Part shown: in pieces, positions 2,021 to 26,350 of the stretch
Layout: the number at the start of each line of letters is the position of its first letter
How positions within the stretch are numbered: position 1 is the first letter of the stretch
Source of the DNA: an uncultured Acidobacteriaceae bacterium
Lineage (GTDB): Bacteria; Acidobacteriota; Terriglobia; Terriglobales; Acidobacteriaceae
NCBI GenBank assembly: GCA_964249905.1
Contig: CAXUEE010000008.1
Coordinates: 3,764 to 40,622 of the forward strand
Direction of reading: 5' to 3'
DNA length: 36,859 bases
Translations under genes and position numbers: made by a program
The notes under the pieces: generated by a model
Told to the model about the DNA's origin: nothing
The model's database searches: none
The model's input: the letters and a program-made list of their open reading frames with translations, nothing else

Positions 2021-2038
2021 TACCTTGATATCAAGGGA
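2021..2038. promoter_or_regulatory. Candidate MarR (MhqR-like) operator
   Basis: TACCTTGATATCAAGGGA, containing the perfect 14-bp palindrome CCTTGATATCAAGG, upstream of the monooxygenase remnant. Confidence 0.65.
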
Positions 2039-2225
2039 TGCCTTTGATCACCGCTTTTGAAGCTGCAGATGTGACTTTTATTAATCTGCAAACGGAGGGA
2101 TACGTGAAGGTCAAATACTCTAAACCGTCGCCCTAGCGTAGAAAACCTATCGATACGCACGTCGTGCGCACCGGCAAGCACCGCACCCCGCAAGCACGAG
2201 CTGTGCACGTCGCTCCTGCACCCAG

Positions 2226-2723
2226 CTAGAGAATTTCAAAGATGCTGTAAAGCGGTCCACTTGCGAGGCGCGAGCCGATTCCGATCGTTACAATACGATT
2301 GAGCCAATCGTAATCCTTCGAAGCCGTCTCGAAGCTCGGTGTGATCCGGAAGTAATAGTCGGCCGGATCCACCGGTGTTCCTTGGTCCAGCTTATGCAGA
2401 ATCTCTGCATCACCAGCTCGAGTGGCCGTGTAGCCCATCGTAATCAGCGCACCATCACTGGTCTTCAATACCATGCGGACGTCGAGCTTCATGCAGTTGT
2501 CCTTGCGCAGAGTCTGCCAGTCGTTGCCGGTGACGACCTCTCCTGAGAGACGATCGCCTTCGAAACGTCCTCCCTGGACAATGCCGACACGCCTGAATGC
2601 ATTCGGTGTTTCTCCCACAACCAGCAGGGGCGGGATATCCTCGCGCAGCACAAAGAGGGGACGCGTTTTCACCTGCTTGAGTGCATCGGGAAGCTTATCA
2701 AAGGCCAGATCGGACATGTACAT
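2226..2723 (-). CDS. DUF3237 family protein
   Basis: 165 aa. GETPNAFRRVGIVQGGRFEGDRLSGEV, LDVRMVLKTSDGALI, YYFRITPSFETASKDYDWLNR. Confidence 0.88.
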   Translation of the reverse strand: MYMSDLAFDKLPDALKQVKTRPLFVLREDIPPLLVVGETPNAFRRVGIVQGGRFEGDRLSGEVVTGNDWQTLRKDNCMKLDVRMVLKTSDGALITMGYTATRAGDAEILHKLDQGTPVDPADYYFRITPSFETASKDYDWLNRIVTIGIGSRLASGPLYSIFEIL

Positions 2724-2770
2724 CCCCTCAGCGTTCTTGGGTGTTCTTAAGTGTTGCGGACCGCAACTCT

Positions 2771-3748
2771 TCAGGCGCTCAGAAACGAGAGGATTGCATT
2801 GGCAACCTGCTCCGGCTGTTCTTCCGGCACGAAATGACCTGAGTTCGCGATCACAATCGACTTACAGTGCTGGAAGAACGGCTCCAGGGATGGACCCATC
2901 GCCGGGATCGCGTATTGTCCACCCATGGCAAGCAGCGGGATTGCGCTCTTGCCCCGTGAGTGCTCCTTATTAAATTGCATGTCTTCGAGGATCTGCCTAC
3001 AGTAGTCGAAGGCAGCGTCCATGCGGCCCGGACGGGCATAGGCTGCGACGTAGGCGGCGACGTCGTCTGGAGGCACAGCGCCTGGGGTGTGCACCTTGTT
3101 CTTAAACCACCAGCCAACGTAGATGTCTTCCTTCCCGGCTGTCAGTTGGGCCGGCAGATCTGGAAGCATCTGGAAGACGAAGTTCCACTTCCGGAAGTAA
3201 TCAGCAAGCTCGACCTCGCTCGTCAACGTCACTCCGGGGATGCCCGCGTCGATCAGTGTCAGTGTTTTGAAGTCCTTTGGATACATCAACGCCCAGCTGT
3301 ATGCCACCCAGGCTCCAAAGTCGTGCGCCACCACATGGAGTGGAGTTCCTATGCCCTGCACAAACTCATGGAAGACGCGTCCGGCATTTTCCGTGGTTGC
3401 TGGGGCCTGGAGGATTGCAGAATCGCCGAAGCTAGGCAGATCGGCCGTAATGACTTCATAATGCGGGGCAAGCAGGGGCTTGACTCGGTTCCAGGATCTG
3501 CGCGTTTGCGGAAAACCAGAGAGGCATAGAACCTTGTCTCCGCTCCCGGTGAGGTCAAAGCCGATTCCCTTGGCCTCAGCTGCTGCGTTTAGCGTGCGTG
3601 TATCGGTTGGCGGACCGGCCTGCGGTTGAATCTGCGCCAGGGCACACTCTTCCGGCAGAATCAGATTTAATCCAAGCCCTGCCACCCCCATCATGGCTGA
3701 ACCGGCTTTCAGCAGAGAACGCCGGCTGAGCCCGGTCGGGCCTGCCAT
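2771..3748 (-). CDS. Tat-exported alpha/beta hydrolase (epoxide hydrolase/dehalogenase-like)
   Basis: ATG at 3748 with GGAAGGAG RBS. Twin-arginine SRRSLLK signal, SGFP oxyanion motif, AHDFG nucleophile Asp, SGHFVPEEQP catalytic His. Confidence 0.88.
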   Translation of the reverse strand: MAGPTGLSRRSLLKAGSAMMGVAGLGLNLILPEECALAQIQPQAGPPTDTRTLNAAAEAKGIGFDLTGSGDKVLCLSGFPQTRRSWNRVKPLLAPHYEVITADLPSFGDSAILQAPATTENAGRVFHEFVQGIGTPLHVVAHDFGAWVAYSWALMYPKDFKTLTLIDAGIPGVTLTSEVELADYFRKWNFVFQMLPDLPAQLTAGKEDIYVGWWFKNKVHTPGAVPPDDVAAYVAAYARPGRMDAAFDYCRQILEDMQFNKEHSRGKSAIPLLAMGGQYAIPAMGPSLEPFFQHCKSIVIANSGHFVPEEQPEQVANAILSFLSA

Positions 3749-3823
3749 ACTAGACTCCCTTCCGGGGAGGAAATGCTCTGTCACGATGGATCGCCCTTTC
3801 TCAAACCGGTGGTCCTGGTTTAC

Positions 3824-3856
3824 GTTATGATCGCATACATACTTGATGTCAAGATA
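3824..3856 (-). promoter_or_regulatory. Sigma70-like promoter overlapped by candidate MarR operator
   Basis: Minus strand TTGACA (3847-3852), 17-nt spacer, CATAAC (3824-3829). The -35 lies inside the palindrome CTTGATGTCAAG (3842-3853). Confidence 0.7.
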
Positions 3857-3880
3857 CCATCATGATCAGGCACACGCTGC

Positions 3881-4810
3881 TCAGACGATTTTGAGAACCT
3901 GAACAGCGTGCCCTGCCCTGCTGGCGACCTTCGCATACGAGCTGAGAGCCGCAGCAAACTCCGAAACCTCGATAAGCGGCACCCGCAGGTGCCCTGCCTC
4001 GAAGAGAGGGCGAAGTTCATCAAGCAGAGGGGCAAGCTCTGCACCGTCCATGTCGATGGTGCTGACACCAATGAGACGCGCCTTATGGTGGAGGAAGGCG
4101 GCGAGTTCGAAGGTAACCCGCTCACCGGTCTTTCCAGCAATTGCGACCTGTCGTCCGCCAACAGATAGACAGCGGAGACAAGGCTCGAAGAGTTGTGAGC
4201 CTACGGCATCCAGAATCACATCGACACCCTTGCCGTCGGTGAGGCGGTGAATATTACTTACCAGATCGGCTTCTTGTAGGTTGATGTACTGGTCGCCTGA
4301 ACCCGTCGCTTGAACGTCTGCGCCGATGACCGTCGCCTTTCTCCAATGTGCAATCTGCGTCGCGGCCGTCCCGACAGCCCCGTTCACTCCGGTGATCAGC
4401 ACATGTTCCCCCGGCTGCAGCTCAGCGGCTTTCTGCAACGCAACATACGCCGCGAAGTAGGGGATTCCAACGGCGGTGGCCTCCGGCATGGAAAGGTTCT
4501 TCGGCTTTTCGGAGAGCCAACTCATGGGGACCACGGCAAATTCTGCATGCGCGCCGTCGCGCTCAACGCCAAACTCCGGCCCAGTCCCCCACACCTCTCT
4601 TCCCTCCCAACCCTCGCCTTCCAGCACGATACCCGCAAAGTCTCGTCCAGGCGTGCAGGGCAAGACACCCGGCAAGCGGAGTCAAAAACGAGTGACCGAG
4701 GCGGCATGTATCTCGACAAGCGCCTCATCCTCGCAGAAAGGAGGACGAGGGAGCTCCTGCCAGGACAGTACCGATGGAGGTCCGTATTGTGAGAAACGCA
4801 ATGCCTTCAT
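3881..4810 (-). pseudogene. MDR-family quinone oxidoreductase, disrupted
   Basis: MKALRFSQYGPPSVL start at 4810 with GGAG RBS. In-frame TGA at 4682-4684 in a garbled, shortened segment. Continues PGRDFAG ... ITGVNGAVG. Confidence 0.8.
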
Positions 4811-4895
4811 AAGGCAACTATCTCCGGTCTGCCGCGCGACTGTTTCAGTGGACAGACGTGTTGCAGGATTCTGCAGTGCGCGGCAGAACCTCGGC

Positions 4896-4913
4896 TGTCT
4901 TGAAGCCAAGCAT
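4896..4913. promoter_or_regulatory. Candidate autoregulatory MarR operator (1 mismatch)
   Basis: CTTGAAGCCAAG at 4899-4910, between the divergent MDR pseudogene and marR. Confidence 0.45.
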
Positions 4914-4936
4914 CTCTACTTCGGTAAACTGGCGGC

Positions 4937-5395
4937 ATGACAACAGGCGAGGCAAAAAGCGCCAAGCTGAACGGGAGTCAGGTCTTCGATACGCTTTGGA
5001 AAGCGCATCGAAATCTGCTTGCTCGTGCGGAGAAAAGTTACAGTCATATTGGTTTGTGTGAGTCCGACTTCAAGGTACTTATCATTCTTCTGAAAGACGG
5101 GCCGAAGCCAGTAAACACCCTTGGCAACGAAGTCGAACTGACCACCGGCTCCATCACGACAGCGATTGACCGTTTGGAAGCGAAATGGCTGGTCATGCGC
5201 AAACATCACCCTACGGACAGGCGCGTGCGTGTCGTTGAGCTGACGGCAAAAGGGCAGCGCCTGATTGAGAAAGGACAACTGCGGCACGCATCCGATCTCG
5301 ACGATGCTGTAAAGGTGTTATCGACAGCAGAGCGCGAAACGTTGATGAAGCTGCTTGCCCGGCTCACGGCATCACGATCCGATCACCGAACGTAG
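4937..5395 (+). CDS. MarR family repressor, MhqR-like
   Basis: 152 aa. SDFKVLIILLKDGPKPVNTLGNEVELTTGSITTAIDRLEAK...HPTDRRVRVVELTAKG. The GSIT..D.LE.K and PTDRRV motifs match B. subtilis MhqR as I recall it. Confidence 0.92.
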   Translation: MTTGEAKSAKLNGSQVFDTLWKAHRNLLARAEKSYSHIGLCESDFKVLIILLKDGPKPVNTLGNEVELTTGSITTAIDRLEAKWLVMRKHHPTDRRVRVVELTAKGQRLIEKGQLRHASDLDDAVKVLSTAERETLMKLLARLTASRSDHRT

Positions 5396-5427
5396 CGGGC
5401 AAGATTCTTGAGTCCTCCGCCGGACCC

Positions 5428-5700
5428 TTAAGTGGGCCCCGCGACTCGCTTCCAAGTGACGATCCGGCCATCAATCGCATATCGCCCGTCCGTGCCAAGA
5501 GCGAGCGCCCGTCGCGAACGAGCCTCCGTCGAGGAAGACTCGTTGAGGTCGACCCAGCACGCCACATAATCCTCGATTTCAGGCGAAAAGCCCTCTTGCT
5601 GGTCGCTCTCAAAGCCTGTGACGATTGCATTCATCGTCTCCTGTGGTGCGTCATCGAAGGCGATCTCGATGCGGTCTCCAACTCTCAAATCGTCCGGCAC
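5428..5700 (-). CDS. Hypothetical small acidic protein
   Basis: 90 aa. GTG start with GAGGGG RBS, 22 bp downstream of the zf-UBP gene on the same strand. Confidence 0.6.
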   Translation of the reverse strand: MPDDLRVGDRIEIAFDDAPQETMNAIVTGFESDQQEGFSPEIEDYVACWVDLNESSSTEARSRRALALGTDGRYAIDGRIVTWKRVAGPT

Positions 5701-5722
5701 GTTCCCCTCACTTCCATCCGCC

Positions 5723-6073
5723 CTAGTGCAGAAGCGACTGCCAATTCGGAGGAACCTTGCCGGCAGGACCGGGGGCCGGTTGCGTTTCCGGGTGCCAGCG
5801 TGGCTCCGCCAGGTGAGTTCCCGGTGTCATGCGTGATGTTTCGTAGTCGTAAAACCAGGCTTCTCCGGGTTCGAAGCTGGCAGCGATGCGGTGACCCGTC
5901 TCTTGGTAGTGTTTCGTTGCGTGCTGGTGAGGCGAGCTATCGCAACATCCGATATGTCCGCACTCTGCGCACCGGCGCAGGTGGAGCCACCAACCTTCCG
6001 CCGCCATACATTCTGCACAGCCGGTGCCGCTCGGCTTTGCAGCAGGGTTGATGCCATGCCTTTCAGCGCTCAT
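5723..6073 (-). CDS. UBP-type zinc finger protein (bacterial zf-UBP), copy 1
   Basis: GCAECMAAEGWWLHLRRCAECGHIGCCDSSPHQHATKHYQETGHRIAASFEPGEAWFYDY. ATG at 6073 with GAGG RBS. Confidence 0.92.
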   Translation of the reverse strand: MSAERHGINPAAKPSGTGCAECMAAEGWWLHLRRCAECGHIGCCDSSPHQHATKHYQETGHRIAASFEPGEAWFYDYETSRMTPGTHLAEPRWHPETQPAPGPAGKVPPNWQSLLH

Positions 6074-6113
6074 TGCTGTTTTCCTCGACCTCTGAGTCAC
6101 GGTAAGCCGAAAG

Positions 6114-6131
6114 CCACTTGACGTCAAGGGA
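6114..6131. promoter_or_regulatory. Candidate MarR operator
   Basis: Perfect palindrome CTTGACGTCAAG at 6117-6128, between the divergent zf-UBP and DUF5996 genes. Confidence 0.65.
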
Positions 6132-6183
6132 GATAAAGCGAAAGGATTAGGCAGCGGCGATGCTGGCCGACAAAGGAGACCCA

Positions 6184-7137
6184 TTGGAGTATCACGCACC
6201 TACGCTGGAACTGGGAACGTGGCCGGAGCTCGATTGGGCCGGGTGGAAGGACACGGCGGAAACTCTACAACTCTATACGCAGGTAGTGGGCAAGACACGC
6301 CTTGCGCTTACGCCCACCCAAAACCACTGGTGGAATGTACCGCTCTATGTTACGGCGCGCGGCCTTGGGACCTCTGCCATGCCTCTACCAGGTGGTCATC
6401 TTTTAGAGGCGGAGTTCGACTTCCTCAACCACGAGCTGGTACTTCGAACCAGTAAAGGCAAGTATGGCCGGCTTGCTCTTGAAGCGATGCCGGTCTCTGA
6501 GTTCTATCGCCTCTACATGCTGCAGCTGGAGGAGATCGGCGTGCGTCTCGCGCTAGATACCATGCCCGTTGAGGTCAAGAACCCGATCCGGTTCGAGCAG
6601 GACACCACGCGTCGTTTCTATGACCGCGGTCCCGTGGAACGCTTCTGGCAGGCGCTCCGCCTGGCCGACACTCTGCTGAAGCGTTTCTCGACTGGTTTTT
6701 ACGGAAAGATCAGCCCAGTTCACTTCTTTTGGGGCTCGTTCGATTTGGCGGTCACGCGCTTCAATGGGAAGCGCGCACCCGCACGGCAGGGGTCCGACGC
6801 CGTGCAGAATGAAGCCTATTCTCACGAGGTGATCAGCGCAGGCTTCTGGCCTGGAAACGGCGGCTATGGGCGCCCGGCGTTCTATGCCTACGCAGCGCCC
6901 GTACCGGACGGCTTGCCGGAGGTCGCGTTGAAAGGCTCAGGACGCTTCGACCACACGCTTGGGGAGTTTCTGCTGGATTATGACGACCTCCGGCAGACAG
7001 AGGACCCTGCTACTACGGTGCTTACGTTTCTCCAGGAAACCTACGCTGCAGCCGCCGACACTGCTCGGTGGAACCGTAGCGAGCTGGACCGGAACGACGC
7101 CGTTGGACAACTCTCCACTAAGACCGAGCGCGCCTGA
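6184..7137 (+). CDS. DUF5996 family protein
   Basis: WPELDWAGWKDTAETLQLYTQVVGKTRL, NHWWNVPLYVTARGL, SPVHFFWGSFDLAVTRF, EAYSHEVISAGFWPG. TTG at 6184 follows AAGGAG (ATG 6160 is an alternative). Confidence 0.88.
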   Translation: MEYHAPTLELGTWPELDWAGWKDTAETLQLYTQVVGKTRLALTPTQNHWWNVPLYVTARGLGTSAMPLPGGHLLEAEFDFLNHELVLRTSKGKYGRLALEAMPVSEFYRLYMLQLEEIGVRLALDTMPVEVKNPIRFEQDTTRRFYDRGPVERFWQALRLADTLLKRFSTGFYGKISPVHFFWGSFDLAVTRFNGKRAPARQGSDAVQNEAYSHEVISAGFWPGNGGYGRPAFYAYAAPVPDGLPEVALKGSGRFDHTLGEFLLDYDDLRQTEDPATTVLTFLQETYAAAADTARWNRSELDRNDAVGQLSTKTERA

Positions 7138-7167
7138 TGTCGAAGCGGCCAGAGAAAGGAGGGCAAC

Positions 7168-7758
7168 TTGGGCAAGGGTCGTCTGGAGGCATTCAGTGAT
7201 GGCGTACTCGCCATCATCATCACGATCACGGTCCTGGACATTCATGTCCCGCATGGCGTTACGTGGACAGGTCTTCGACAGTTGGCGCCTGTGTTCTTCT
7301 CGTATGTCCTGAGCTTTGTCTACGTGGGCATCTACTGGAACAACCACCACCATCTGCTGCAAGCGGCGGAGCATGTGTCAGGCAGTGTGCTATGGGCGAA
7401 CCTTCACCTTCTCTTCTGGCTTTCGCTGGCGCCGGTGCTCACCTCGTGGATGGGCGACAACCCGCATGCTTCTCTGCCTGTGGCCATGTATGGCGTCATG
7501 CTGTGGTCGGCTTCCATCGCGTACTACCTTCTTACACGGGCGCTCGTCCGTCAGCACGATCGCGATTCAGTACTGGCGAGTGCCATCGGCAGCGACGGCA
7601 AAGGTGTCTTTTCTATGCTGGTATACACAGCTGCAATACCGCTCGCCTTTTGGACGCCAGCATGCGCGTGCGCAGCATACGCCTTGGTCGCCATCGTCTG
7701 GCTGCTGCCGGATCGACGGATTGAAGCTCGCCTCGCGGAACACGCCCATCCGGAGTAG
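7168..7758 (+). CDS. TMEM175 family potassium channel (DUF1211)
   Basis: RLEAFSDGVLAIIITI signature, YWNNHHHL, about six hydrophobic segments. RBS AGGAGG. Confidence 0.93.
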   Translation: MGKGRLEAFSDGVLAIIITITVLDIHVPHGVTWTGLRQLAPVFFSYVLSFVYVGIYWNNHHHLLQAAEHVSGSVLWANLHLLFWLSLAPVLTSWMGDNPHASLPVAMYGVMLWSASIAYYLLTRALVRQHDRDSVLASAIGSDGKGVFSMLVYTAAIPLAFWTPACACAAYALVAIVWLLPDRRIEARLAEHAHPE

Positions 7759-7820
7759 GTAGGCAGGCTGCCAGCGTAAGCTCCTTCCCCACACAAATTC
7801 GGAATTGAGGGAGTCACAAG

Positions 7821-8750
7821 ATGCAGCGAATTGTTCTGCACCAGTATGGTTCACCGTCCGTGCTGCAGGTTGAAGATGCAGCGGTTCCGGTTCCCGGTCC
7901 TAACGACCTCCTCCTGCGGACCATCGGAGCGGGCATCAACCCTATTGATCTCAAGCTCCGTTCCGGTGCCGTACAGCATACGTCTCCTCTCGACTTCCCT
8001 GCCGTTTTGGGATTGGATATCGCCGGCACAGTCGAGAGCACAGGCTCCAATGTGAGCGGATTTCAAGTGGGAGACCGTGTTTTCGCGAAGACACTGCAGG
8101 CGTACGCGGAGTTCTGTCTCGTTGATGCGAGCCACGCCGCACACATTCCGCAAGGGCTTGACCCAGTGGACGCTGCGGCTCTGCCAGTCGTATTGACTAC
8201 GGGATATCAGCTCTTTATAAGCACCAGCTTGCAGCCTGGCCAAACCATTCTCGTTTCCGGCGCTCTGGGAAGCGTCGGCCGCGCCACCGTCTTCGCGGCA
8301 AAACAGGCCGGGATCCGGATAATTGCGGCGGTGCGTGGCGAGCAAAAGCTTGCCGCTGCGGAGCTGCAGGTGGATGAAACCATCGCTACAGAGGACTTAC
8401 CCGCACTCACACAGCTGCCGCAGATCGATGCCGTAGCGGACACAGTTGGTGGGGCCGTAGCGTCGTTCCTCGTGGGCCGTGTAATAAAGGGCGGGACCTT
8501 CGCTTCAGTGCTGGGCCTGCCGCAGGGTGCAGCGGATCATTCGGATGTGCGCATGGCTTCTGTATTTTCCATGCACGATCCGGTCGCACTCGTTCGTATG
8601 GCCGCCGGGGTACTTGATGGCCGGCTTCGTATTCCCATGGGTCCACGCTTCCCCCTTACGCAGGCGGCTGCGGCCCACGCCGCCGCCGAACGGGGCGAAC
8701 GGCAAAATTGTGCTTGTACCGCACGCATAATGGATATTCATTATGCGTGA
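7821..8750 (+). CDS. NADP-dependent MDR-family oxidoreductase with a frameshifted extreme C-terminus
   Basis: INPIDLKLRSG, LGLDIAG, VSGALGSVG. The canonical end ANGKIVLVP lies in another frame (stop 8730). The shift is at about 8691-8697 (CGGGGCG). Confidence 0.88.
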   Translation: MQRIVLHQYGSPSVLQVEDAAVPVPGPNDLLLRTIGAGINPIDLKLRSGAVQHTSPLDFPAVLGLDIAGTVESTGSNVSGFQVGDRVFAKTLQAYAEFCLVDASHAAHIPQGLDPVDAAALPVVLTTGYQLFISTSLQPGQTILVSGALGSVGRATVFAAKQAGIRIIAAVRGEQKLAAAELQVDETIATEDLPALTQLPQIDAVADTVGGAVASFLVGRVIKGGTFASVLGLPQGAADHSDVRMASVFSMHDPVALVRMAAGVLDGRLRIPMGPRFPLTQAAAAHAAAERGERQNCACTARIMDIHYA

Positions 8751-9400: not shown

Positions 9401-9484
9401 CGATCACCCTCTTGCAAGCAGCGGCGAAGGACAACGCTGGTCTTGGATCTCCAGTTCAGCAGACCGCAGGGCTGCGAAGACGAT

Positions 9485-9844: not shown

Positions 9845-9969
9845 GGATCTTGGCCTCCACCATTGATAATCCTGAGATTAGGTGTTGTGCAGCAGCGGCC
9901 CAACTCTGAAAGTATGCCTGCCTTTCCCTACTTCCGAGGTTGCGATCAAAAGTAGAGAAATAAAGCCTG

Positions 9970-13442: not shown

Positions 13443-13467
13443 GTCTCATCTCCTTTGCGTCCTCTTG

Positions 13468-16918: not shown

Positions 16919-18181
16919 TTACACGTCGAGCGCGGCACGTTCGCTACAACCGAAGGGTCCCTTGACGCGAAGTTCTCCAACACATCCAAGCTGCTCTATC
17001 GGCATAACATCCCTACCGTGGCTCATAAGCCGTCCACACGTGATGCGGCGAGCACTTCCGCTCTGCTTGATACTTAGGGCAATGGCAGTGAGCTGCTGCT
17101 GCACTCCCTTCACGAGTGAGGTGCCCGTTCCGCCGAATGTCTCAATGCCACGCCGAAACCGTAGCTCTCCCACCGGTTGACTGATCTGTACGCCTACCGC
17201 GCCATCTCCGCGAGTCACGATCCGGTCGAACTCAGCTCGCTCTACAGTTCCGCTATACACGTTGAAGCCTCGCGCGCCTTGCCCATGTGTTTCGATAGGG
17301 GCTTGGACCTGTAGCTCGCAAACCGTGCCGAAGTTCACGAAGCCGATGGCGCTCTCACCATAGGTTGTCACGCTTGCTTTGGCGATCCAGCGATCCACTT
17401 CACCCCAATTATCGAGAGCCATGTCATTGGCTCCGAAGGTAGTCACACGACCGCGGTTCTCTATCAGTTCTGCGGCGGCGCCGTGTACCAAGAAAACACC
17501 ACCCGAAATGCGATCAGCCGTCCCGGGTGCGATGCGGCCATCGCTATACACCGCTCCCGTGCGCAAACGCTCTACGTTCAATGAGATCTCAGTTGACCCG
17601 GCGCCCCCGACGAAGACACCGCTGCCGCGGACTGGTTCCTGCCTGCTACCGACTGAAATATCGAGAAGATCAGCCGTCACTGGAACGGATCTTCCGGCTC
17701 CCAGTACCCAGAGTGTGAATGCGCCCTGAAGCACGGAGACTCCGAAGCCGTTTGGCTGCTCCGCTTGCGCCGTGGCATCCGCGGCTGCGATGTGCAAGCC
17801 TCGCACTTCGACTCTCGCCAACTGCTGAGAAGAGTGCGTGACGATGCGCACGCAGCCTACAGTCTCGACACCCTCGATCCAAATCGAGCCGAGTTCCGGG
17901 ACATCCGGATCCGCGGCGAGAGCGTCAGCTCCTGGGGCGACCATCAACCGCAGTCCCTGTATACGGTTCTCGCCACGGAGCTGCACACCGCTGCTACCTT
18001 GAACGAATCTGACGGTGGGACGCACGCCACTGGCACCCTGCAGATGAGCTCCCCGCAGCAGAAAAAAAGCGGGCACCTCATCCAGGTCGCGTCCGATCTC
18101 TATGACCTGACACTCTGGTGCGATGACCGCGTTAAGCAGCTCGGAAACTGAATCGACTTGGCGGGTGGTAGGCAAACGCAT
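16919..18181 (-). CDS. Uncharacterised putative parallel beta-helix protein
   Basis: Long intact ORF. Repeats TTFGANDMAL / TTYGESAIGF / ETHGQGARGF / VTRGDGAVGV / ETFGGTG at about 26-29 aa spacing. ATG 18181 chosen, but the start is uncertain. Confidence 0.75.
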   Translation of the reverse strand: MRLPTTRQVDSVSELLNAVIAPECQVIEIGRDLDEVPAFFLLRGAHLQGASGVRPTVRFVQGSSGVQLRGENRIQGLRLMVAPGADALAADPDVPELGSIWIEGVETVGCVRIVTHSSQQLARVEVRGLHIAAADATAQAEQPNGFGVSVLQGAFTLWVLGAGRSVPVTADLLDISVGSRQEPVRGSGVFVGGAGSTEISLNVERLRTGAVYSDGRIAPGTADRISGGVFLVHGAAAELIENRGRVTTFGANDMALDNWGEVDRWIAKASVTTYGESAIGFVNFGTVCELQVQAPIETHGQGARGFNVYSGTVERAEFDRIVTRGDGAVGVQISQPVGELRFRRGIETFGGTGTSLVKGVQQQLTAIALSIKQSGSARRITCGRLMSHGRDVMPIEQLGCVGELRVKGPFGCSERAALDV

Positions 18182-18211: not shown

Positions 18212-18229
18212 TGCCTTGATTGCAAGATA
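18212..18229. promoter_or_regulatory. Candidate MarR operator (1 mismatch) over a possible -35
   Basis: TGCCTTGATTGCAAGATA. On the minus strand TTGCAA-17 nt-CAAGCT precedes the beta-helix gene. Confidence 0.5.
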
Positions 18230-19078: not shown

Positions 19079-19504
19079 TTATTTGCTTTGGCCGAGTTCG
19101 ATTAGATAGCCATCCGGATCGGTCAGGTAGCAGCGGATCTCTGCACCGCGATCAATCGGATCGGTGAAGAAGCGTGCACCGCGGCTCTTCCAAAGAGCGT
19201 GGGTCGCATGGATATCCGCAACACGCAGGTTCAGGGCCGCCGAAAGCACGTTGCCGTTCTCCGGGGCGGCAGCCGTGACCGCAGGCTTGTCCTCGGTTGG
19301 ACCGCCGCCGGTATTCAGGGTCAGGTAGGCGTTGCTGAGCTTCAGGAAGGTCGGTGGTCCGTGCTGAAGCAACTCCGCGCCCAGCACGTTGACGTAAAAA
19401 TCTGAGGATTGCGTAAGGTCGCGCACGATGAACATAAACGTGGCCAGGAGGCCGCTCTCCGGAATAGGACGGCCGGTATCTTGGGATCCCTGCGCATGTG
19501 CCAT
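19079..19504 (-). CDS. VOC/glyoxalase family protein
   Basis: VRDLTQSSDFYVNVLG, LNLRVADI, EIRCYLTDPDGYLIE. ATG 19504 with AAGGAG. Confidence 0.92.
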   Translation of the reverse strand: MAHAQGSQDTGRPIPESGLLATFMFIVRDLTQSSDFYVNVLGAELLQHGPPTFLKLSNAYLTLNTGGGPTEDKPAVTAAAPENGNVLSAALNLRVADIHATHALWKSRGARFFTDPIDRGAEIRCYLTDPDGYLIELGQSK

Positions 19505-19526
19505 GGCAAACACTCCTTCAATGCGT

Positions 19527-19925
19527 TTACTTGGGTAGGTTCGTGGACGAGAACGCGTAACGCAGGATCTTGAACTCGCCCGCGGCGTTCCTGCGAAAGA
19601 TGAAAAGCTCCTGGTTTGCTTCAGCGCTTGTCTGGCCGGTGGCATGGTCGAGCGTATGCCCGGCGGAGTTGGTGCGCGCATACACCCAGTCGGGCGCCAT
19701 CTCAACCACCTCGGCTACATGGAACTGCACGGAAAGCTGGATCGCGCGGAACACGGCATCGTATGCCTGCCGCAGCGCGGGTTGACCGATGGCGGAGGGA
19801 CCAAATGGCGCCATGAAGGCGCCATCGTCATCATAGAGCGGCATTACGGCGTCGGTGTCGGACGCGTTCAGCGCCCTTTCGTAGGCGCTAAGCACCTTGG
19901 ATACGGCTTCCTCATTGGGCGTCAT
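19527..19925 (-). CDS. SnoaL/DUF4440 NTF2-like protein
   Basis: YERALNASDTDAVMPLYDDDGAFM, ARTNSAG, NQELFIF, KILRYAFS. ATG 19925 with GGAG. Confidence 0.88.
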   Translation of the reverse strand: MTPNEEAVSKVLSAYERALNASDTDAVMPLYDDDGAFMAPFGPSAIGQPALRQAYDAVFRAIQLSVQFHVAEVVEMAPDWVYARTNSAGHTLDHATGQTSAEANQELFIFRRNAAGEFKILRYAFSSTNLPK

Positions 19926-19963: not shown

Positions 19964-19981
19964 TACCTTCATATCAAGGGA
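19964..19981. promoter_or_regulatory. Candidate MarR operator
   Basis: TACCTTCATATCAAGGGA, 17/18 identical to the site at 2021-2038. Lies between the divergent SnoaL-VOC and MDR-TrxR units. Confidence 0.65.
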
Positions 19982-20051
19982 CATTCTCTTACCCCGTGGA
20001 GCGGGGCGGCCGTGTCCTTTGAGGTCAATAAGTGCGAGGAGCCGAATCGGC

Positions 20052-20960
20052 ATGAAGGCGAGCGTGATGCAGCAGTACGGCGGTCCCGAGGTTTTGATCT
20101 ACAGCGACTTTCTTGATCCAGCCCCGGTGCAGGGCGAGGTCCTGATCCGCGTCGCCGCCGCGAGTGTGAATCCGGTGGATCTGTTCCAGCGCAGCGGCGG
20201 CACTAAGGACTATCTGCCCGTGTCGTTTCCCGGGATTATCGGCTGGGACGTGGCCGGCATCGTGGAGGCGCTCGGCCCCGGCGTTACCAGCTTCGCCGTG
20301 GGTGATCGCGTGATGGCCTGGGCTTTCGCCACCTATGCGGAGCTGTGCGCCGTGAACGCGTCCGTTGTGTCGCGTGTGCCTGACGAGATCAATTTGCAGG
20401 ACGCGGCTGCCCTGCCGCTGGCAACGCCCACGGGCAGCCAGTTGATCTCGGAGGCAAGCGGCGTAAAGCCTGGTCTGCGTGTGCTTGTCTCCGGCGCAGC
20501 CGGCACCGTGGCGCGAGCCGCGGTGCGCACGGCCAAGGATCAGGGCGCAACCGTCATCGCCGGCATTCGTGCCGACCAGCGGAACGAGGGCGGGACGCTG
20601 GGCGCCGATGAGGTGCTGGCACTTGACGATGCAGCAGCCTTCGCCAGACTTGAGCCGGTCGATATCGTCGCCAACACGGTCAAGGGAGACACTGCCAGCA
20701 TGCTGATGGACAAGATCAAGGCCGGTGGCACGTTCGCCTCGGTCACCGGACCGCCGGACAATGCGGCGAACTACCCGCGGGTCAAGGTGGTACCCTTCGT
20801 CTCAAAGCAGAGCACGCAGACGATGGATTACATGGCGCGCGAGGCAGCCGCGGGCAGGCTGACAATCCCTATCGCGCTGCGCATGCCGCTGAGCGAAGCG
20901 CGCAAGGCACATGAGGCCATGGCGGCCGGCGTGTCCGGCAAGATCCTGCTGATTCCCTAA
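20052..20960 (+). CDS. NADP-dependent MDR-family oxidoreductase
   Basis: MKASVMQQYGGPEVL, SVNPVD, GWDVAG, VSGAAGTVA, GKILLIP. Paralog of 7821-8750. Confidence 0.92.
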   Translation: MKASVMQQYGGPEVLIYSDFLDPAPVQGEVLIRVAAASVNPVDLFQRSGGTKDYLPVSFPGIIGWDVAGIVEALGPGVTSFAVGDRVMAWAFATYAELCAVNASVVSRVPDEINLQDAAALPLATPTGSQLISEASGVKPGLRVLVSGAAGTVARAAVRTAKDQGATVIAGIRADQRNEGGTLGADEVLALDDAAAFARLEPVDIVANTVKGDTASMLMDKIKAGGTFASVTGPPDNAANYPRVKVVPFVSKQSTQTMDYMAREAAAGRLTIPIALRMPLSEARKAHEAMAAGVSGKILLIP

Positions 20961-20999
20961 ATGGCTCGCCGACCTGCGGCCGGCAAAAGAGACGAGAGC

Positions 21000-22658
21000 A
21001 TGGCACAGACCAGCACCAACCACGACCAGGCCTTTCCTACGCTGAGCCCTGCGGCCCTGGAGCGCGTGAAGCGCTACGGCCAGACCGAAGAGGTACCAAC
21101 GGGCACTGTGCTGACGGCGCAGGGCGAGCCGATGGATCGATTCTTCGTCGTGCTTGACGGTGAAATCAGTGTGGAACAGAACACCCGAGAAGGAATCCAG
21201 CAGGTGGCAACGCACGGCCCCGGCGAGTTCTTCGGTGACGTGCATTCACTCTCAGGCCGGCCAAGCCTGGTCACCGGACGCATGGCGCGGGGCGGCCGAG
21301 TCCACACCGTATCACGCGCCGATCTGCAAAGCCTGATGCACGACGATAGCGAGCTTGGCGAGCTCTTCATGCGGGCGTTCATCCTCCGCCGGCTTGAACT
21401 CCTCGCATCCTCGGTGGGCGACGTTGTCGTATTGGGGTCTCCCAACTCCAGCGGCACGCTGCGCGTCCGCGAGTTCCTCACCCGCAACGGCTACCCACAC
21501 TCCTTTCTTAACCTGGAGAATGAAGCGGACGTGCAGGCGATGCTGGATCGCTTCGCGGTCTCGATCGACGAAATCCCGGTGCTGATCTACCAGGGCAAGA
21601 CGGTGATGCGGAACCCGAGCAATGAGGAGGTCGCCACTGCACTCGGCTTTAACCAAAGCGTCAGCGAAGACGAGATCCGCGATGTGATTATCGTGGGCGC
21701 GGGACCTGCAGGACTCTCCGCGGCGGTGTACGCCGCCTCCGAGGGCCTGAGCGCGCTGCTACTGGAGACCAAGGCACCGGGCGGGCAGGCCGGCTCGAGC
21801 TCGCGCATCGAGAACTATCTCGGCTTCCCGAATGGCATTGCGGGGCTGGAGCTTGCCGGCCGCGCTTTCGACCAGGCGCAGAAGTTTGGTGCGGAGTTTC
21901 TGATCGCGAGGTCTGCCGTCGAGCTTGCCTGTGGTTCCAAGCCGCTGCGCCTCAACACGACCGGCGGGTCGGCCCTGCAAGCCAGGACGATCGTCATCGC
22001 GAGCGGCGCCTGCTACCGCAAGCTGCCGATTCCGGGCCTGGAGCATTTCGAAGGCGTGGGCATTTACTACGGCGCCTCGACACTTGAGGCACAGATGTGC
22101 AGCTCACATGACGTGGTGGTCGTCGGTGGCGGGAACTCCGCCGGGCAGGCCGCCGTGTTTCTCGCGAATACGGCGCGCCATGTGCATATCTTTATCCGCT
22201 CCGGCGAGCTCGCCGCATCCATGTCGCGCTACCTGATCCGGCGCATCGAGGACACCGCGAACATCACACTGCATCCGTACACGGAGATCACAGCCCTCTA
22301 CGGAGAGCAGCACCTGGAGAGCATCGAGGTGCTGAACAACAGCACGGGCGAGCGCACTCGCCAGGAAATCCGCCATGTGTATCTGATGACCGGCGCGAGC
22401 CCCAACACAGCGTGGCTGCGGCAGTGTGTGGCGCTCGATGAGAAAGGGTTCATTCTCACAGGGCTCGCGCTCACCGACGAGCATCTCCAGCGCTTCGGCT
22501 GGCCGTTGCAGCGTCGACCGTACCTGCTGGAGACCAGCACACCGGGCGTGTTCGCCGCTGGCGATGTGCGCTCCGGGAGCGTAAAGCGCGTAGCCTCCGG
22601 CGTGGGCGAAGGATCGCTGTCCGTCAGCTTCATCCACCAGGTACTCGCCGCCAGTTAG
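21000..22658 (+). CDS. cNMP-binding-domain / glutaredoxin-like / thioredoxin-reductase-like flavoprotein
   Basis: cNMP fold (QGEPMDRFFVVLDGEI, GPGEFFGD), then GAGPAG, GGQAGSSSRIENYLGFP, GGGNSAG, PGVFAAGDVR. ATG 21000 (20961 is an alternative). Confidence 0.92.
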   Translation: MAQTSTNHDQAFPTLSPAALERVKRYGQTEEVPTGTVLTAQGEPMDRFFVVLDGEISVEQNTREGIQQVATHGPGEFFGDVHSLSGRPSLVTGRMARGGRVHTVSRADLQSLMHDDSELGELFMRAFILRRLELLASSVGDVVVLGSPNSSGTLRVREFLTRNGYPHSFLNLENEADVQAMLDRFAVSIDEIPVLIYQGKTVMRNPSNEEVATALGFNQSVSEDEIRDVIIVGAGPAGLSAAVYAASEGLSALLLETKAPGGQAGSSSRIENYLGFPNGIAGLELAGRAFDQAQKFGAEFLIARSAVELACGSKPLRLNTTGGSALQARTIVIASGACYRKLPIPGLEHFEGVGIYYGASTLEAQMCSSHDVVVVGGGNSAGQAAVFLANTARHVHIFIRSGELAASMSRYLIRRIEDTANITLHPYTEITALYGEQHLESIEVLNNSTGERTRQEIRHVYLMTGASPNTAWLRQCVALDEKGFILTGLALTDEHLQRFGWPLQRRPYLLETSTPGVFAAGDVRSGSVKRVASGVGEGSLSVSFIHQVLAAS

Positions 22659-22700: not shown

Positions 22701-23799
22701 TCACGCGATCAGAAACTGTATCCGGCGTGGTTGCCTTTCCGCCGCAGCGTCGATCTGCTTGCGCATCGGTCTGTCAAACGGAGCTATGACGCTGTTGCCA
22801 CAGCAGTCCTCCAACTCCGTTGAGACCTCAACCGCGTGGATCCCGGCCGCCCACGGTATCTCTGGTTGAAAGCGGCAGCTGGTCTCGCAGGCGAGCACCT
22901 CCAGGCAGCCGAGAACACGAGTGCCTTTAGGGCTGGCAATCCTGACAGCGTGGCGGAGGGATAGCTGATCGAGGGCGCGGCCGAACTCGACGATGACTGG
23001 ATCGCTGCTGCCGGCTGCCGGCGCGGTCACCCGCCATGCGTTAGTGTTGATCGCTTCGCGGCTCGGCTGCTTTGGGAAAAAGAGTTTGCGGAAGGGCTCT
23101 GAAAGGGGCGTGCCGTCCGCGCTCAACATCCCGGCGCCGATCGCCAGAGCGTACGCCCTTCCCTGTTGTAAGGGAGGCCCAAAAGAGCGTTTGGACCGAC
23201 GAAACGCTTCAGTCTGCCGGGATCCAGAAGCACCGTCAGCTGGCGAATCGTCCTGTCCCAAAGCTCTACCGGAGCACGGTAGAGCGCGTCCTCCACGGGC
23301 GAACCGTCGCCATTGAGAATCTGGATGTTCTGCACGGCGCAGCCCCGGCGCATGGCTGGCTGAATAGCAAGTGAAATCGCAAAAGATTTGCCGGCAGGCG
23401 ATCGGCTGTCGGGTACGCATGCGTTACCTGGCAGCTTGCGACCGGCTGCTGAGGCAAGACCGTGAACTCTTTCCGAAGCACAGGCTCACGATCCGGCATG
23501 CCGCAGAACGATACACGGTACTGTAGGCCACGCGGAAAGGGCAGTAGCGGAGTAAACACTACTTCATTGCCGCAAACTTGATGTGACCGGCCACCGCTGG
23601 ACCGTCCGCTTGCTCCGTTGCCTCGCTACTTGCTACGTGAACGCGCAGCAAGCCAGCCAAGGCCAAAGGATCGGCCTTATGCCGAGCCAATTCAAGAGCG
23701 AAGCGGCCTGCAGCTCGAGAACAATGGAGGCCGCTGGCCCGAACATCTCTGAATCAGTCCACTGACGCGCGGGTGGAGCGCAGGCGACCTGCTCAACAT
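22701..23799 (-). pseudogene. Conserved hypothetical protein with probable Ig-like domains, frameshifted
   Basis: Fragments: VFTPLLPF; YPTADRLPANLLRFHLLFSQP; ELWD...LTVLLDPGRLKR; FQPEIPWAAG...LEDCCGN...PFDRP. ATG 23799 with GGGAG. At least three frameshifts. Confidence 0.72.
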
Positions 23800-23841
23800 G
23801 TACTCCCTTCGCCCGCCCGCGTCATCTCGGCTCCCTTGTCC

Positions 23842-25113
23842 TCACAATTTGTCGGGGCCGCGATTGGTGCGGTACTCAAACGGGTCTGGGCCATCAGGCC
23901 AGTTCATTTCGGACATGCCGTCCTTGCGCTCAAAGAAGTATGGGCACGCCAGGGTGCTCAGATCGAGTCGATACGTCGTTCGTGGATGTCGCCAAAGGAT
24001 GATGGTCCACTTGCTGTTCAGAAATGCCATGTGCTCTGCCCGGATGGGCAGGTCGCGCGCCGTCTTGCCCAAGCCGCTTGGCCCAAAGTCGATCGGAACG
24101 CCGGTCGGCTCCGCAGGTGCACTCTCCAAGTCTGCCACCAGCACCCGCTTGCCGCCTCGGGTGTCAATCGTGACCAGCAGGTACTCCTTCCCAACGGAGA
24201 TGTCGGTATAGCTCAACATGTCCAGCGGATTGCTGCCATACCCCAGCTCGCCTATAACCTCGCCGCGGACGTGAGCACCATCCTTCAGGGCAGACAAGGG
24301 GAAGCGAACGAGCGGTGTGCAACCGTACACGGCGAAGAGGAAGGGCTTGCCGTTGAACTCATGGATGTACTGCGCACGCGTTTCAAACTCGCTGTGCACC
24401 GGATGCCAGATCTCCACCGTCGTCTTCGATCGTGATGCATTGAAGGGGTAAGGGATGCGCAGCAGCGTCGACGCGAAGCGTTGATTGGTGATGCCGGAGA
24501 CGAAGATCTCCCCCTTGTGGTATTTGATGTCGGTGATGGCATACATGCGCTGCGGGTCTAACTCCAGCCGTGCCTTCGGGTCCGGCTCATCCGGGATTGC
24601 GACCTGCGTATGCGGGATGCCGGACAGATCCAGAATCTCGAGTTGCCCCTTGTTGAATTTCACAATGACAGGTTCGAGGCTGGGACCGTCCCCGCTCCAC
24701 GGACAGGAAGATCTGCTCGGCGGCCGGATGCACGACCATGTCGTTGATGGTCACATCGTCCAGCGTAGTGCCCAGCATGGCCGCTACCTTGGCGTCAATG
24801 CCTTGCACAAGATCGCGGCCTTCGAAGTTATGAAAATTGCCGATCGGACTACCCTGCTGCGGATTCAGGTCAGCTTCGCGTAACGCGAAGGCGTGCACGG
24901 CCGCCCCGGCGATGTCACCTACAAAGAGCACTTTGTCTGGGCCAAAGGTGAGCACGCCCGCCGAACGGAGTGGACCGGACACCGCGGCTCGGGTCGCGGC
25001 AGCGGGCGGTTGAGCGAACGTCCGCTCGCTGAGAGCCTGACCGCCGAGGCACCCGCAAAGCGCAGCAGGTCGCGACGAGACGGAGCGGATTGCAGAGCAC
25101 GATCAGTAGCCAT
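23842..25113 (-). pseudogene. Tat-signal conserved hypothetical protein (probable beta-propeller), frameshifted
   Basis: Three overlapping ORFs: SRRDLLRF signal; LTFGPDKVLFVGD...INDMVVHP; ITDIKY...FASTL...EIWHPVHSEFETRA...YGCTPLV...ELGYGSNPLDM. Confidence 0.75.
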
Positions 25114-25215
25114 TGAGGTCTCCAGCCTTCTATAAGCGCCGCGATCTCGCCAATGGTGGGTGCCCGGCTATACGAGAACGAATCTGTGAGCTTGCTATCT
25201 CGCAGCGAAGGCTGG

Positions 25216-25678
25216 TTAGATCACGACCTCGCCGCCGTCAGGATCGCTCTGAAAGGTCCAGGAGCCACCCGAGCGGAAGATAGATCCTGTGCCAAAGGTG
25301 TCCTCCATGAATTACATGTAGGTGACCAGACCAGCCTGCACCTTGCAAAAGATCGCAAATGGTGTCGTTATGGTCTTTCCTAGCTTCGTTGAGGTGTAAG
25401 TAAACCTGCCGAAGACAGCAAACTTCCCATCCTCTGCAATCACGTCCTCGGAACGAAAATCATCCACGTGCCAAAAGCGACCGACTTTCAGGAAGGTCTT
25501 GCTGATCGCTTCTGCCCCCTGCCCCGTACCGCACCAAGGCATAATCTTGTAGAGATCCGGATTGCTGTAATTTAAATGAAACGTAGGTCACGTCGGGTGA
25601 GCACAGTTGTTTCACCACCTTGGGATTGCGGATACCGCTGAGCAACTCAGTCACCACCTGCTTTGCATCTGCTGACAT
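25216..25678 (-). pseudogene. SnoaL-like/NTF2 protein with a frameshift and a nonsense codon
   Basis: MSADAKQVV...DVTYVS, extra T near 25575, then NYSNPDL...MPWCG...VTYM, TAA at 25312-25314, then FMEDTFGT...DPDGGEVVI and stop at 25216. Confidence 0.8.
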
Positions 25679-25756
25679 ACTGGTCTCCTCGCCTAGATGT
25701 GGGTCACTGCGATCCAATTGCATAGCTGGGGGCGAGCAAGGCGCCAGCGCGCACAC

Positions 25757-26335
25757 TTACTTGCTGGATGGCGGCACAATGCCGTTCATCCGCAGATACT
25801 CCACCATTTGTCCGTAATGATCGTAAGCGTGAGCGATGCCGTGAGCTGCCATAGTCTCCCGATTTGCGAGCTGGGGTCCAGGAATGATGATCGTCGCGTT
25901 CTCTCTGCTCAACTGAGCGACTGCCTTCCGGGCGAACTGAAGCGAATCCGCAAGCGCACGAACAAGCTCGTCCTTACTCTTCAACGTCCCAAGGCCATTT
26001 GCCGCAGGGTCGACAGGCAGGCCGCCAGCCTCAGCGAAGATATGGTAGTTAGCCTCTGTCACGTGCCGAACCTGATCCGCAAAGGAGCGAACACCGTGGA
26101 AGCTAGCTCCTGGCACATGCAGATCGTCTGGCGAAAAGCTGTATTTCTCCGCAGGCATGGCGCGGGCAACCGGCAGAATGTCTGCTTCCAAAAGATCGAT
26201 GAGGGAGGCAAACGCCTCTGGAGTGCCCGCGTGCTGTACGGAACCCACCTCTTGGCGCATTGCAGTCACCTGCGCTTTTACCGGTAAGGGTCCCACACAC
26301 AGGCCTAAAGCAAGGAAGTAAACAAATCGTTTCAT
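25757..26335 (-). CDS. Signal-peptide-bearing DinB family protein
   Basis: MKRFVYFLALGLCVGPLPVKA signal; AMPAEKYSFSP, VRSFADQVRHV, HAYDHYGQMVEYLRMNGIVPPSS (His triad). Confidence 0.9.
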   Translation of the reverse strand: MKRFVYFLALGLCVGPLPVKAQVTAMRQEVGSVQHAGTPEAFASLIDLLEADILPVARAMPAEKYSFSPDDLHVPGASFHGVRSFADQVRHVTEANYHIFAEAGGLPVDPAANGLGTLKSKDELVRALADSLQFARKAVAQLSRENATIIIPGPQLANRETMAAHGIAHAYDHYGQMVEYLRMNGIVPPSSK

Positions 26336-26350
26336 CTTGACGTAAAGGTA
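26333..26350. promoter_or_regulatory. Candidate MarR operator (1 mismatch) abutting the DinB start codon
   Basis: CATCTTGACGTAAAGGTA, core at 26336-26347. Confidence 0.5.

Follow-up and report, generated by a model that had tools for sequence, protein, structure and literature searches.

A palindrome as the likely operator of an MhqR-like MarR repressor on a modular island of an uncultured Acidobacteriaceae bacterium

The palindrome CTTGA-N2-TCAAG recurs along 36,859 nt of DNA from an uncultured Acidobacteriaceae bacterium (the window, meaning the whole stretch analysed), and the question is whether its copies are operators of the MarR protein encoded among them, and which compound would then release that repressor. 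A sequence-only reading had proposed an MhqR-like regulon responding to quinones. We find it likely that the extended form TA(T/C)CTTGA-N2-TCAAG(A/G)TA is the operator of this repressor, which would hold down its own gene and seven units (zf-UBP, DUF5996-TMEM175-MDR, beta-helix, SnoaL-VOC, MDR-TrxR-like, DinB-SnoaL_2-propeller and hydrolase-DUF3237) until an aromatic electrophile releases it.

The palindrome and the genes it accompanies

The boxes, which have no strand, are listed with their matrix scores.

2021..2038: orphan box before a gene remnant (23.4 bits, rank 1 in the assembly)
3839..3856: box on the hydrolase-DUF3237 side (21.3 bits, rank 2 in the assembly)
4896-4913 and 4911-4928: weak tandem boxes just upstream of marR (8.6 and 8.0 bits)
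6114..6131: box between zf-UBP and DUF5996 (10.4 bits, perfect core)
18212..18229: box 30 nt before the beta-helix gene (15.5 bits)
19964..19981: box 38 nt before SnoaL (18.3 bits)
20015..20032: weak box 19 nt before the third MDR gene (10.0 bits), absent from the sequence-only reading
26333..26350: box over the DinB ATG, at the head of the DinB-SnoaL_2-propeller run (18.9 bits)

Three perfect cores were present (2024, 3842 and 6117), against a mean of 0.08 in shuffled sequence, and none of 100 shuffles reached three; the earlier hand estimate was well below one perfect core per 37 kb by chance. With up to one mismatch allowed the window held ten cores where 1.26 were expected, including those already pointed out at 4899, 18215, 19967 and 26336. 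Three of the ten lie within coding sequences (6568, 7944 and 27766), a case already named as a caveat, and the 18-mers 2021-2038 and 19964-19981 are identical at 17 of 18 positions, as had been claimed. On the independent matrix 0.145 window sites of at least 15 bits were expected and six were observed; the one at 27763 falls within the broken epoxide hydrolase gene.

Within the 3.6 Mb assembly, whose completeness is 72.7%, window sites took matrix ranks 1, 2, 6, 7 and 19, and the weak sites (the marR pair, 6114 and 20015) ranks 155-468 of 470. Among 2940 other upstream regions of the assembly only 22 reached at least 12 bits. The bare 10-base core was not enriched genome-wide, with nine matches at a spacer of 2 against 0-11 at other spacers. 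The palindrome signal is its concentration on the island, rather than genome-wide abundance of the bare core.

The genes concerned are the following, with the basis of each assignment in brackets.

1609..2011, minus strand: frameshifted remnant of an aromatic-ring hydroxylase C-terminal domain (two frames match PF21274, E 4.6e-4 and 3e-8)
2226..3784, minus strand: Tat alpha/beta hydrolase (2771-3748, start possibly 3784), then DUF3237 (2226-2723) (Pfam)
3881..4810, minus strand: MDR oxidoreductase pseudogene opposite marR (in-frame stop 4682-4684)
4937..5395, plus strand: MarR-family repressor, MhqR-like (Pfam MarR PF01047, E 1.4e-10, above cut-off)
5428..6073, minus strand: stand-alone zf-UBP (5723-6073), then a 90-aa ORF of no known family (5428-5700) (Pfam)
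6160..8750, plus strand: DUF5996 - TMEM175 K+ channel - MDR oxidoreductase unit (family models)
16919..18181, minus strand: protein with a predicted parallel beta-helix fold (large family without Pfam, 2991 clusters)
19079..19925, minus strand: SnoaL/SgcJ-like gene (19527-19925), then VOC/glyoxalase (19079-19513) (family models)
20052..22658, plus strand: MDR oxidoreductase, then cNMP-binding / TrxR-like flavoprotein (family models)
22701..26335, minus strand: co-directional run DinB - SnoaL_2 - Tat beta-propeller - broken unknown gene (family models)
25757-26335, minus strand: DinB
about 25219-25678, minus strand: SnoaL_2, frameshifted
23842 to about 25113, minus strand: Tat protein, predicted beta-propeller, frameshifted near 24690

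A 75-aa ORF at 1734-1961 was rejected as a gene, being part of the frameshifted aromatic-hydroxylase remnant. The sites had been placed upstream of genes, and this holds generally but not for box 2021, which has only that remnant behind it and controls no intact gene. The -35/-10 spacing proposed for two boxes is fair at 3842, where box 3839..3856 includes, on the hydrolase strand, TTGACA 17 nt ahead of CATAAC; at 18215 (TTGCAA-17-CAAGCT) it is poor. A sigma-70 consensus scanner called no promoter at any box, these two included. The tandem boxes at 4896..4928 are likely autoregulatory sites of marR, judging from an aligned counterpart in the related locus L032 and from tandem sites at 15-bp distance in L026 and L029. 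L032 also shares an identical 13-bp block with box 6114..6131, and a perfect core stands 7 nt ahead of the ATG in its ortholog of the third MDR gene.

The TrxR-like protein (20961-22658) scored 213 bits against a TrxR model cut-off of 343, and its translation has no CxxC at the expected place. Quinone oxidoreductase models score best for the MDR proteins, though below cut-off, and the VOC protein is of the single-domain glyoxalase type. Both zf-UBP and the 90-aa ORF occur in L032, at 75% and 57%. The beta-helix model (pLDDT 93.5) had the AlgE4 A-module as best VIA match (Z 27.5, rmsd 3.7, 306 aligned), and Foldseek gave no match at E<=0.001. For the Tat beta-propeller, a family of 1248 clusters, the fold was predicted by modelling the L032 ortholog, a single 428-aa ORF, and running a fold search with that model. 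Neither fold search indicated a function, and the ESM Atlas returned unnamed clusters and weak propeller leads only. The island is partly decayed in this genome, hence some boxes would control broken genes.

The motif in related islands

A de novo motif search in 28 homologous marR promoters, with the window excluded, gave TATCTTGATATCAAGATA, and 21 of the 28 promoters carry a site of at least 15 bits. By this independent motif the best site of the 3.6 Mb assembly is 2021 and the next best 3839, both in the window. In 19 non-redundant loci of the repressor clade (199,696 bases) all 32 perfect cores were non-coding, 25 of them away from marR, and spacers of 0, 1 and 3-8 in the same loci gave two perfect cores, both coding. 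Further sites were found in 14 of the 19 loci; with the reversed matrix the figure was 2 of 19. Several loci (L179, L191 and L253) are one lineage.

These islands contain the same families in a shuffled arrangement, and a box precedes each of them: zf-UBP, DUF5996, TMEM175, SnoaL, MDR, beta-helix and the Tat beta-propeller. A box lies within 250 nt of the homolog start for all seven close zf-UBP homologs (perfect core), six of seven SnoaL, all four MDR, both DUF5996 and two of three beta-helix homologs; boxes before the latter occur in L172, L185 and L252. The claim of one repressor over all units is thereby backed by other genomes for zf-UBP, DUF5996-TMEM175, SnoaL, MDR and beta-helix, but for hydrolase-DUF3237 and DinB it draws on the window alone. 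No close hydrolase homolog was found in 250 family genomes (one homolog, in G227, is 31% identical), the one DUF3237 homolog examined had no box, and neither had any of ten DinB homologs. The DinB box does head a SnoaL_2 / beta-propeller run, and such a run sits behind a box in other islands too.

Two negative controls were in line with this: of 29 DUF5996 genes lying elsewhere in genomes of the family, away from such islands, only one scored 12 bits or more, and in G105 a beta-helix-DUF5996-TMEM175 cluster has neither a box nor a marR match at E<=1e-15. A strict 14-mer was present in 21 of 151 family genomes, with many sites in coding sequence. The six in G137, a genome with no marR match, were not counted as boxes because they resemble an intergenic repeat dispersed through it. 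In a scan of genome contigs one of 20 loci was relevant. No RNA sequencing run was listed as holding the island, and one run had seven short pieces, which were uninformative.

The base at position 4 of the half-site varies with the recognition helix: repressors with Pro at residue 70 go with A (31 of 32 half-sites), and those with Thr or Ser there, as in the window repressor, go with C (49 of 50). This covariation is essentially one clade split, not independent events. The clade with helix TGSIT[T/S] is found in shuffled many-box islands, whereas the ordinary-locus MhqR-like marR genes of the same bacterial family, with the same motif at their own promoters, stand with one or two genes (pirin, DoxX, YceI, FMN reductases, luciferase-like monooxygenases). 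Comparison of sequences establishes that the sites exist, that they lie outside coding sequence, that they are retained upstream of the same families when islands are reshuffled, and that they covary with the helix.

The repressor, its ligand and other explanations

That the MarR protein at 4937 is MhqR-like, as first suggested from the sequence, is supported by a profile of 80 clade homologs, which puts S. aureus MhqR (9QDR) first in the PDB at E 1.4e-19; many homologs are labelled '2-MHQ and catechol resistance regulon repressor' (JGI), and the named homologs suggest an Acidobacteriaceae-like soil bacterium as host. No other MhqR-like MarR was found in the assembly. With the single sequence 9QDR comes only fourth, and the top match is 8YLF, putatively a UrtR-family protein. 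According to a preprint (bioRxiv 2025.10.30.685541), UrtR-family repressors (PecS, MftR, HucR) have an allosteric alpha3-alpha4 loop and ligand His alike, and F11, F39 and E43 of MhqR are not conserved in UrtR; unlike UrtR, the window repressor possesses both Phe. Against S. aureus MhqR, the one MhqR used for this comparison, a count by eye gave about 34 identical residues in 118 aligned (about 29%), below the >40% given there among Firmicute MhqR.

Recognition helix LTTGSITTAIDRL and wing DRRVR are intact, the MhqR wing D88-K89-R90-V91 corresponding to D94-R95-R96-V97 and the allosteric loop S-S/G-S to T70-G71-S72; helix-4 residues S68 and Y69 are T74 and T75. The 9-9 bp operator of S. aureus MhqR (PDB 9QDR/9SMZ; sequence from PMC6798810) shares 14 of 18 bases with the clade consensus and scores 20.2 bits on the clade matrix, with half-site CTCGA for MhqR of S. 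aureus and B. subtilis and CTTGA in the island clade. The clade consensus also fits an own-promoter operator of the TATCTCGAA type, though the window's own site is weak at 8.6 bits.

We propose that a MarR dimer would sit on the box with one helix per half-site and block RNA polymerase by covering the -35 hexamer, of which TTGA is part, or the transcript start. Ligand in the alpha1/alpha2/alpha5 pocket would release it, as in S. aureus MhqR, and we would expect the inducer to be a small electrophilic aromatic, probably a quinone or a compound of catechol type. Three MDR reductases, a glyoxalase, the TrxR-like flavoprotein and DJ-1 in relatives indicate electrophile detoxification. Pocket residues F17, F45 and H117 match F11, F39 and H111 of S. 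aureus MhqR, needed for sensing in vivo (bioRxiv 2025.10.30.685541). A defining trait of MhqR is release from its operator by methylhydroquinone or benzoquinone with no thiol modification; in the window repressor Cys 41 is common to 77 of 148 homologs, so a thiol mechanism may also apply.

It is quite possible that this MarR clade does use the boxes as operators while the inducer is no quinone, the subclade that lacks the pocket Glu responding to another aromatic or carbonyl compound or being nearly ligand-blind. The pocket Glu (E43 of MhqR) is I49 here, whereas 141 of 148 homologs have Glu and none Ile, and the closest relatives share its loss (D, A, Q in P0002-P0004; L, Q, R in P0027, P0047, P0072) along with that of the aromatic at position 114. 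Boxed genes include DJ-1/PfpI, glyoxalase and SnoaL families instead of MhqE-type dioxygenases. Nor did the boxed units yield a ring-cleavage dioxygenase or an azoreductase of the sort typical of the Firmicute regulons, which speaks against the main reading. Against a non-quinone inducer, island-clade repressors keep the Glu in 16 of 19 loci with the same regulon, and the E43A variant of S. aureus MhqR retained binding of DNA and of MHQ/MBQ in vitro; the passages of the preprint covered here (bioRxiv 2025.10.30.685541) do not list it with the variants whose transcriptional sensing was impaired.

Less probable, and in our view unlikely, is that a chromosomal MhqR-like paralog missing from the assembly is the main binder and the island repressor is decaying. 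The incompleteness would allow it: a gene of this kind, preceded by a similar box, is present in all five same-genus genomes, and the position it takes in G319 is a contig end here. The window repressor also has a long end branch (0.68 in a quick tree, on no starred branch), in an island with many broken genes. But the positions corresponding to G058 and G368 are contiguous here without such a gene, no pirin was found, none of the 28 columns that are invariant in the 80-sequence alignment is altered in the window repressor, and strong boxes concentrate on the island and accompany this clade in other genomes.

It is very improbable that the palindrome is no more than a pair of -35 hexamers overlapping between divergent promoters, or a chance product of AT-richer intergenic DNA. 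TTGA(C/T) does belong to the -35 consensus and at 6114 a TA..T hexamer follows 17 nt downstream on the zf-UBP strand, here and in L032, yet both halves are conserved without a divergent gene (SnoaL behind marR in L171, L172 and L199), and the motif spans 18 bp with the spacer fixed at 2 bp, often lies over a start codon and varies with the repressor helix. Recombination sites that shuffle modules are hardly credible either: boxes do lie at module borders, gene order differs among islands and the remnant 1609-2011 starts about 10 bp from box 2021, but no recombinase family was found among 45 window proteins scanned, the same motif precedes marR in ordinary pirin/DoxX/YceI loci without shuffling, and L032 homology continues uninterrupted across box 6114.

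What the regulon may mean

The preferred reading, a quinone- or electrophile-responsive MhqR-like repressor acting on the island, concerns a regulator type that is known and unsurprising; the regulon itself was not found in the literature at abstract level, subscription papers and regulon databases such as RegPrecise lying outside this scope, and the search gave no papers on DUF5996. It comprises an island of 7-8 units with uncharacterised families, where Firmicutes have mhqRED or azoR2/mhqNOP/mhqED/mhqA. Several proteins of unknown function and bacterial TMEM175 are thus predicted to belong to one quinone/electrophile stress response.

To our knowledge the physiological role of bacterial TMEM175 is still open. 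E. coli KefB/KefC provide electrophile-gated K+ efflux, linked with glyoxalase-type electrophile defence, and here too a K+ pathway would be tied to such defence, although TMEM175 is an unrelated channel and the link is by predicted co-regulation. Further, we speculate, with considerable doubt, that the island is a mobile, modular electrophile-defence cassette of soil Acidobacteria, in which one operator travels with each module (TMEM175, stand-alone zf-UBP, DUF5996, beta-helix, Tat beta-propeller), TMEM175 serves as a Kef-like K+ route and the Glu-less subclade senses a ligand unknown for MhqR.

The covariation of helix and operator and the natural loss of the pocket Glu offer ready tests of how DNA and ligand specificity change in MarR proteins. 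DUF5996, stand-alone bacterial zf-UBP, the beta-helix and Tat beta-propeller families and bacterial TMEM175 have no assigned role, and the analysis proposes for them a likely operator together with a condition that would induce them. MhqR-type regulation, so far described in detail for S. aureus and B. subtilis, would then reach the Acidobacteria, for which phenolics and quinones in soil may be plausible stresses.

The palindrome and its distribution

The core CTTGA-N2-TCAAG is confirmed as an observation. The sequence-only reading listed three perfect and four one-mismatch cores, and all were found where it placed them, far in excess of the means of shuffled windows (0.08 perfect, 1.26 with up to one mismatch); three further one-mismatch cores lie inside coding sequence. 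It had interpreted them as operators of one MhqR-like repressor, the MarR at 4937-5395, and this turned out to be largely right, the motif being conserved and the boxed units recurring in other islands, with corrections for the units that lack outside support.

Homologs of this MarR were present in 36 of 150 family genomes. A de novo search of 28 marR promoters (29 loci minus one short of upstream DNA, the window excluded) gave TATCTTGATATCAAGATA whether or not a palindrome was imposed, with sites of at least 15 bits in 21 of them. In the window's genome this matrix ranked the 18-bp boxes starting at 2021, 3839, 26333, 19964 and 18212 as 1, 2, 6, 7 and 19, and the weak boxes 6114, 20015, 4896 and 4911 between 155 and 468 among 470 sites above 8 bits. 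Where 0.145 sites of at least 15 bits were expected in the window, six were found, including one within a broken CDS; outside the window 22 of 2940 upstream regions reached 12 bits, the gene calls coming from a custom hexamer model that missed some genes. Across the assembly, which comprises 3.61 Mb in 288 contigs and is 72.7% complete, we counted 9 copies of the bare core versus 0-11 at other spacers, hence the signal is local.

Two off-island sites score 16.6 and 19.2 bits: one lies in the opening codons of an alpha/beta hydrolase (G000:C212:688), the other upstream of a gene that carries a type IV coupling-like ATPase motif (G000:C128:4287). In one genome without a marR match (G137, L093-L097) a longer repeat, present six times in intergenic DNA, contains the same core and looks like a dispersed repeat.

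Boxed units in rearranged islands

The nearest MarR homolog (67%) lies in a rearranged island, L032, which shares the zf-UBP, DUF5996, TMEM175, SnoaL, MDR, SnoaL_2, beta-helix, Tat protein and cNMP-TrxR-like genes at 50-75% identity and carries boxes at the equivalent marR, zf-UBP/DUF5996, SnoaL and MDR promoters; the zf-UBP/DUF5996 box keeps 13 identical bases amid diverged DNA. Further loci came from a metagenome scan (best 80 of 349 loci; best 37 mapped) plus several genome regions. Across 19 non-redundant loci with the helix TGSIT (199,696 bases, two plain pirin-marR loci included), perfect cores were non-coding in 32 of 32 cases, 25 of them distant from marR, and eight alternative spacers gave two cores in total, both coding. 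Further sites were found in 14 of the 19 loci versus 2 with the reversed matrix.

We then counted homologs with a box or perfect core at most 250 nt from their start; it should be noted that L179, L191 and L253 are a single lineage, so the counts overstate independence. The family tallies take in a few unpublished genomes (G002, G025, G174, G248, G269), and none of the claims depends on the sequences of these. The zf-UBP homologs of at least 70% identity were boxed in 7/7 cases and the remaining copies in 1/10, in agreement with the unboxed second copy in the window; two copies likewise occur in L172, L179, L191 and L253. Boxes preceded MDR (4/4), DUF5996 (2/2), SnoaL (6/7), beta-helix (2/3, the third by eye behind an MDR box) and marR homologs (11/17), as well as LuxR (2/6) and SnoaL_2 (2/9), and no VOC homolog (0/3). 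TMEM175 had its own box in 1/9, and by eye lies within a co-directional run begun by a box in 8 of the same 9 loci. As controls, among 29 DUF5996 genes that do not lie in islands of this kind, 1 reached at least 12 bits, and G105 has beta-helix-DUF5996-TMEM175 with neither box nor marR match. The 418-aa beta-helix protein and the Tat protein have predicted parallel beta-helix and beta-propeller folds, which give no function; one beta-helix homolog (P0194) is fused to a SnoaL domain, consistent with the co-occurrence of both families.

Other window features, with strand where assigned:
1-1465, TetR gene with divergent FAD monooxygenase, no box
1609-2011, minus, remnant, with a frameshift, of the C-terminal domain of an aromatic-ring hydroxylase, beginning some 10 bp from box 2021
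9485-9844, minus, second stand-alone zf-UBP gene, no box
9970-10599, minus, LuxR response regulator, no box in the window
11310-14158, TetR gene with divergent SDR, SnoaL and F420-type oxidoreductase unit, no box
14255-16703 (plus), 18482-18988 (plus), 27064-28296 (minus), 33240-33913 (minus), fragments of tricorn-like protease, M13 peptidase, epoxide hydrolase and PDZ peptidase genes
20961-22658, plus, TrxR-like flavoprotein without CxxC motif, in fusion with a cNMP-binding domain
29908-32967, plus, Y_Y_Y/HisKA_3 kinase, no box in the window, 20 kb from the LuxR gene

Homologs of the LuxR and histidine kinase genes recur in related islands, and some of them are boxed (L183, L185, L252).

The hydrolase, DUF3237 and DinB had also been counted as regulon units, and for these we found no outside support: no close homolog of the hydrolase exists among 250 family genomes, the sole DUF3237 homolog has no box, and DinB homologs at 31-47% were boxed in 0/10. 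At DinB the box extends over the ATG, and the run that it heads includes SnoaL_2 and the Tat protein, which are preceded by a box in L177, L184 and L189. The most plausible reading is that DinB and the hydrolase were recruited locally to boxes already in place. The strongest box, 2021, faces solely the aromatic-hydroxylase remnant, and an in-frame stop interrupts the MDR opposite marR. The region looks foreign, most genes in 413-18181 having GC3 of 0.59-0.72 versus a genome median of 0.76 and many window genes being broken; the fragments reflect either a decaying island or assembly errors. The named homologs suggest a host within the Acidobacteriaceae, and one member of the MarR clade, P0119, bears the name Silvibacterium dinghuense.

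The probable repressor of the boxed units

The clade profile of the window MarR has S. aureus MhqR as its top solved match, which bears out the claimed likeness. As it departs from MhqR in identity, E43 and Y69, we file it as MhqR-like, and by analogy it would work like MhqR. In the literature covered, with subscription papers and regulon databases such as RegPrecise outside its scope, we found no account of the regulon or of DUF5996.

Sites of at least 12 bits accompany 44 of 56 non-redundant MarR homologs. Where residue 70 is Pro, the fourth base of the half-site is A in 31 of 32 cases; where it is Thr or Ser, as in the window protein, that base is C in 49 of 50. This covariation is supporting evidence for the pairing of MarR and box rather than proof, because it is largely one clade split. 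In the sister clade with helix LTPGSIS (L202-L250, L164, L169) the operator is TATATTGA-N2-TCAATATA.

The window MarR retains every invariant alignment column, and no other MarR in the assembly is MhqR-like (213 bits for this protein, 49 for the runner-up). An MhqR-like gene is present in 5/5 same-genus genomes, and of the same-genus paralog positions in this assembly two are contiguous and empty and one falls at a contig end, so an MhqR-like paralog missing from the assembly is possible.

Proposed mechanism and inducer

With the window MarR as repressor, a dimer would occupy the 18 bp and dissociate once ligand fills its pocket, by analogy with what is reported for S. aureus MhqR (PMC6798810; bioRxiv 2025.10.30.685541). 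The half-site often includes a -35 hexamer (box 3839; box 6114 on the zf-UBP strand; L172, L191, L252), and others fall at a start codon; repression by occlusion would fit both arrangements. Of the two promoters proposed earlier, TTGACA-17-CATAAC at 3839 is fair, and the -10 at 18215 is poor.

In S. aureus MhqR, F11, F39 and H111 are reported as required for in vivo sensing, and E43A as retaining in vitro DNA and ligand binding with raised basal transcription and MHQ-sensitive growth (bioRxiv 2025.10.30.685541). The window MarR retains the equivalents of the first three and has Ile at the E43 position, where a few near relatives have D, A, Q, L or R; hence the chance that the inducer is a quinone or catechol-type compound seems about even. 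The boxed genes encode MDR reductases, a glyoxalase and the TrxR-like flavoprotein, with DJ-1/PfpI in relatives, a content that fits electrophile detoxification.
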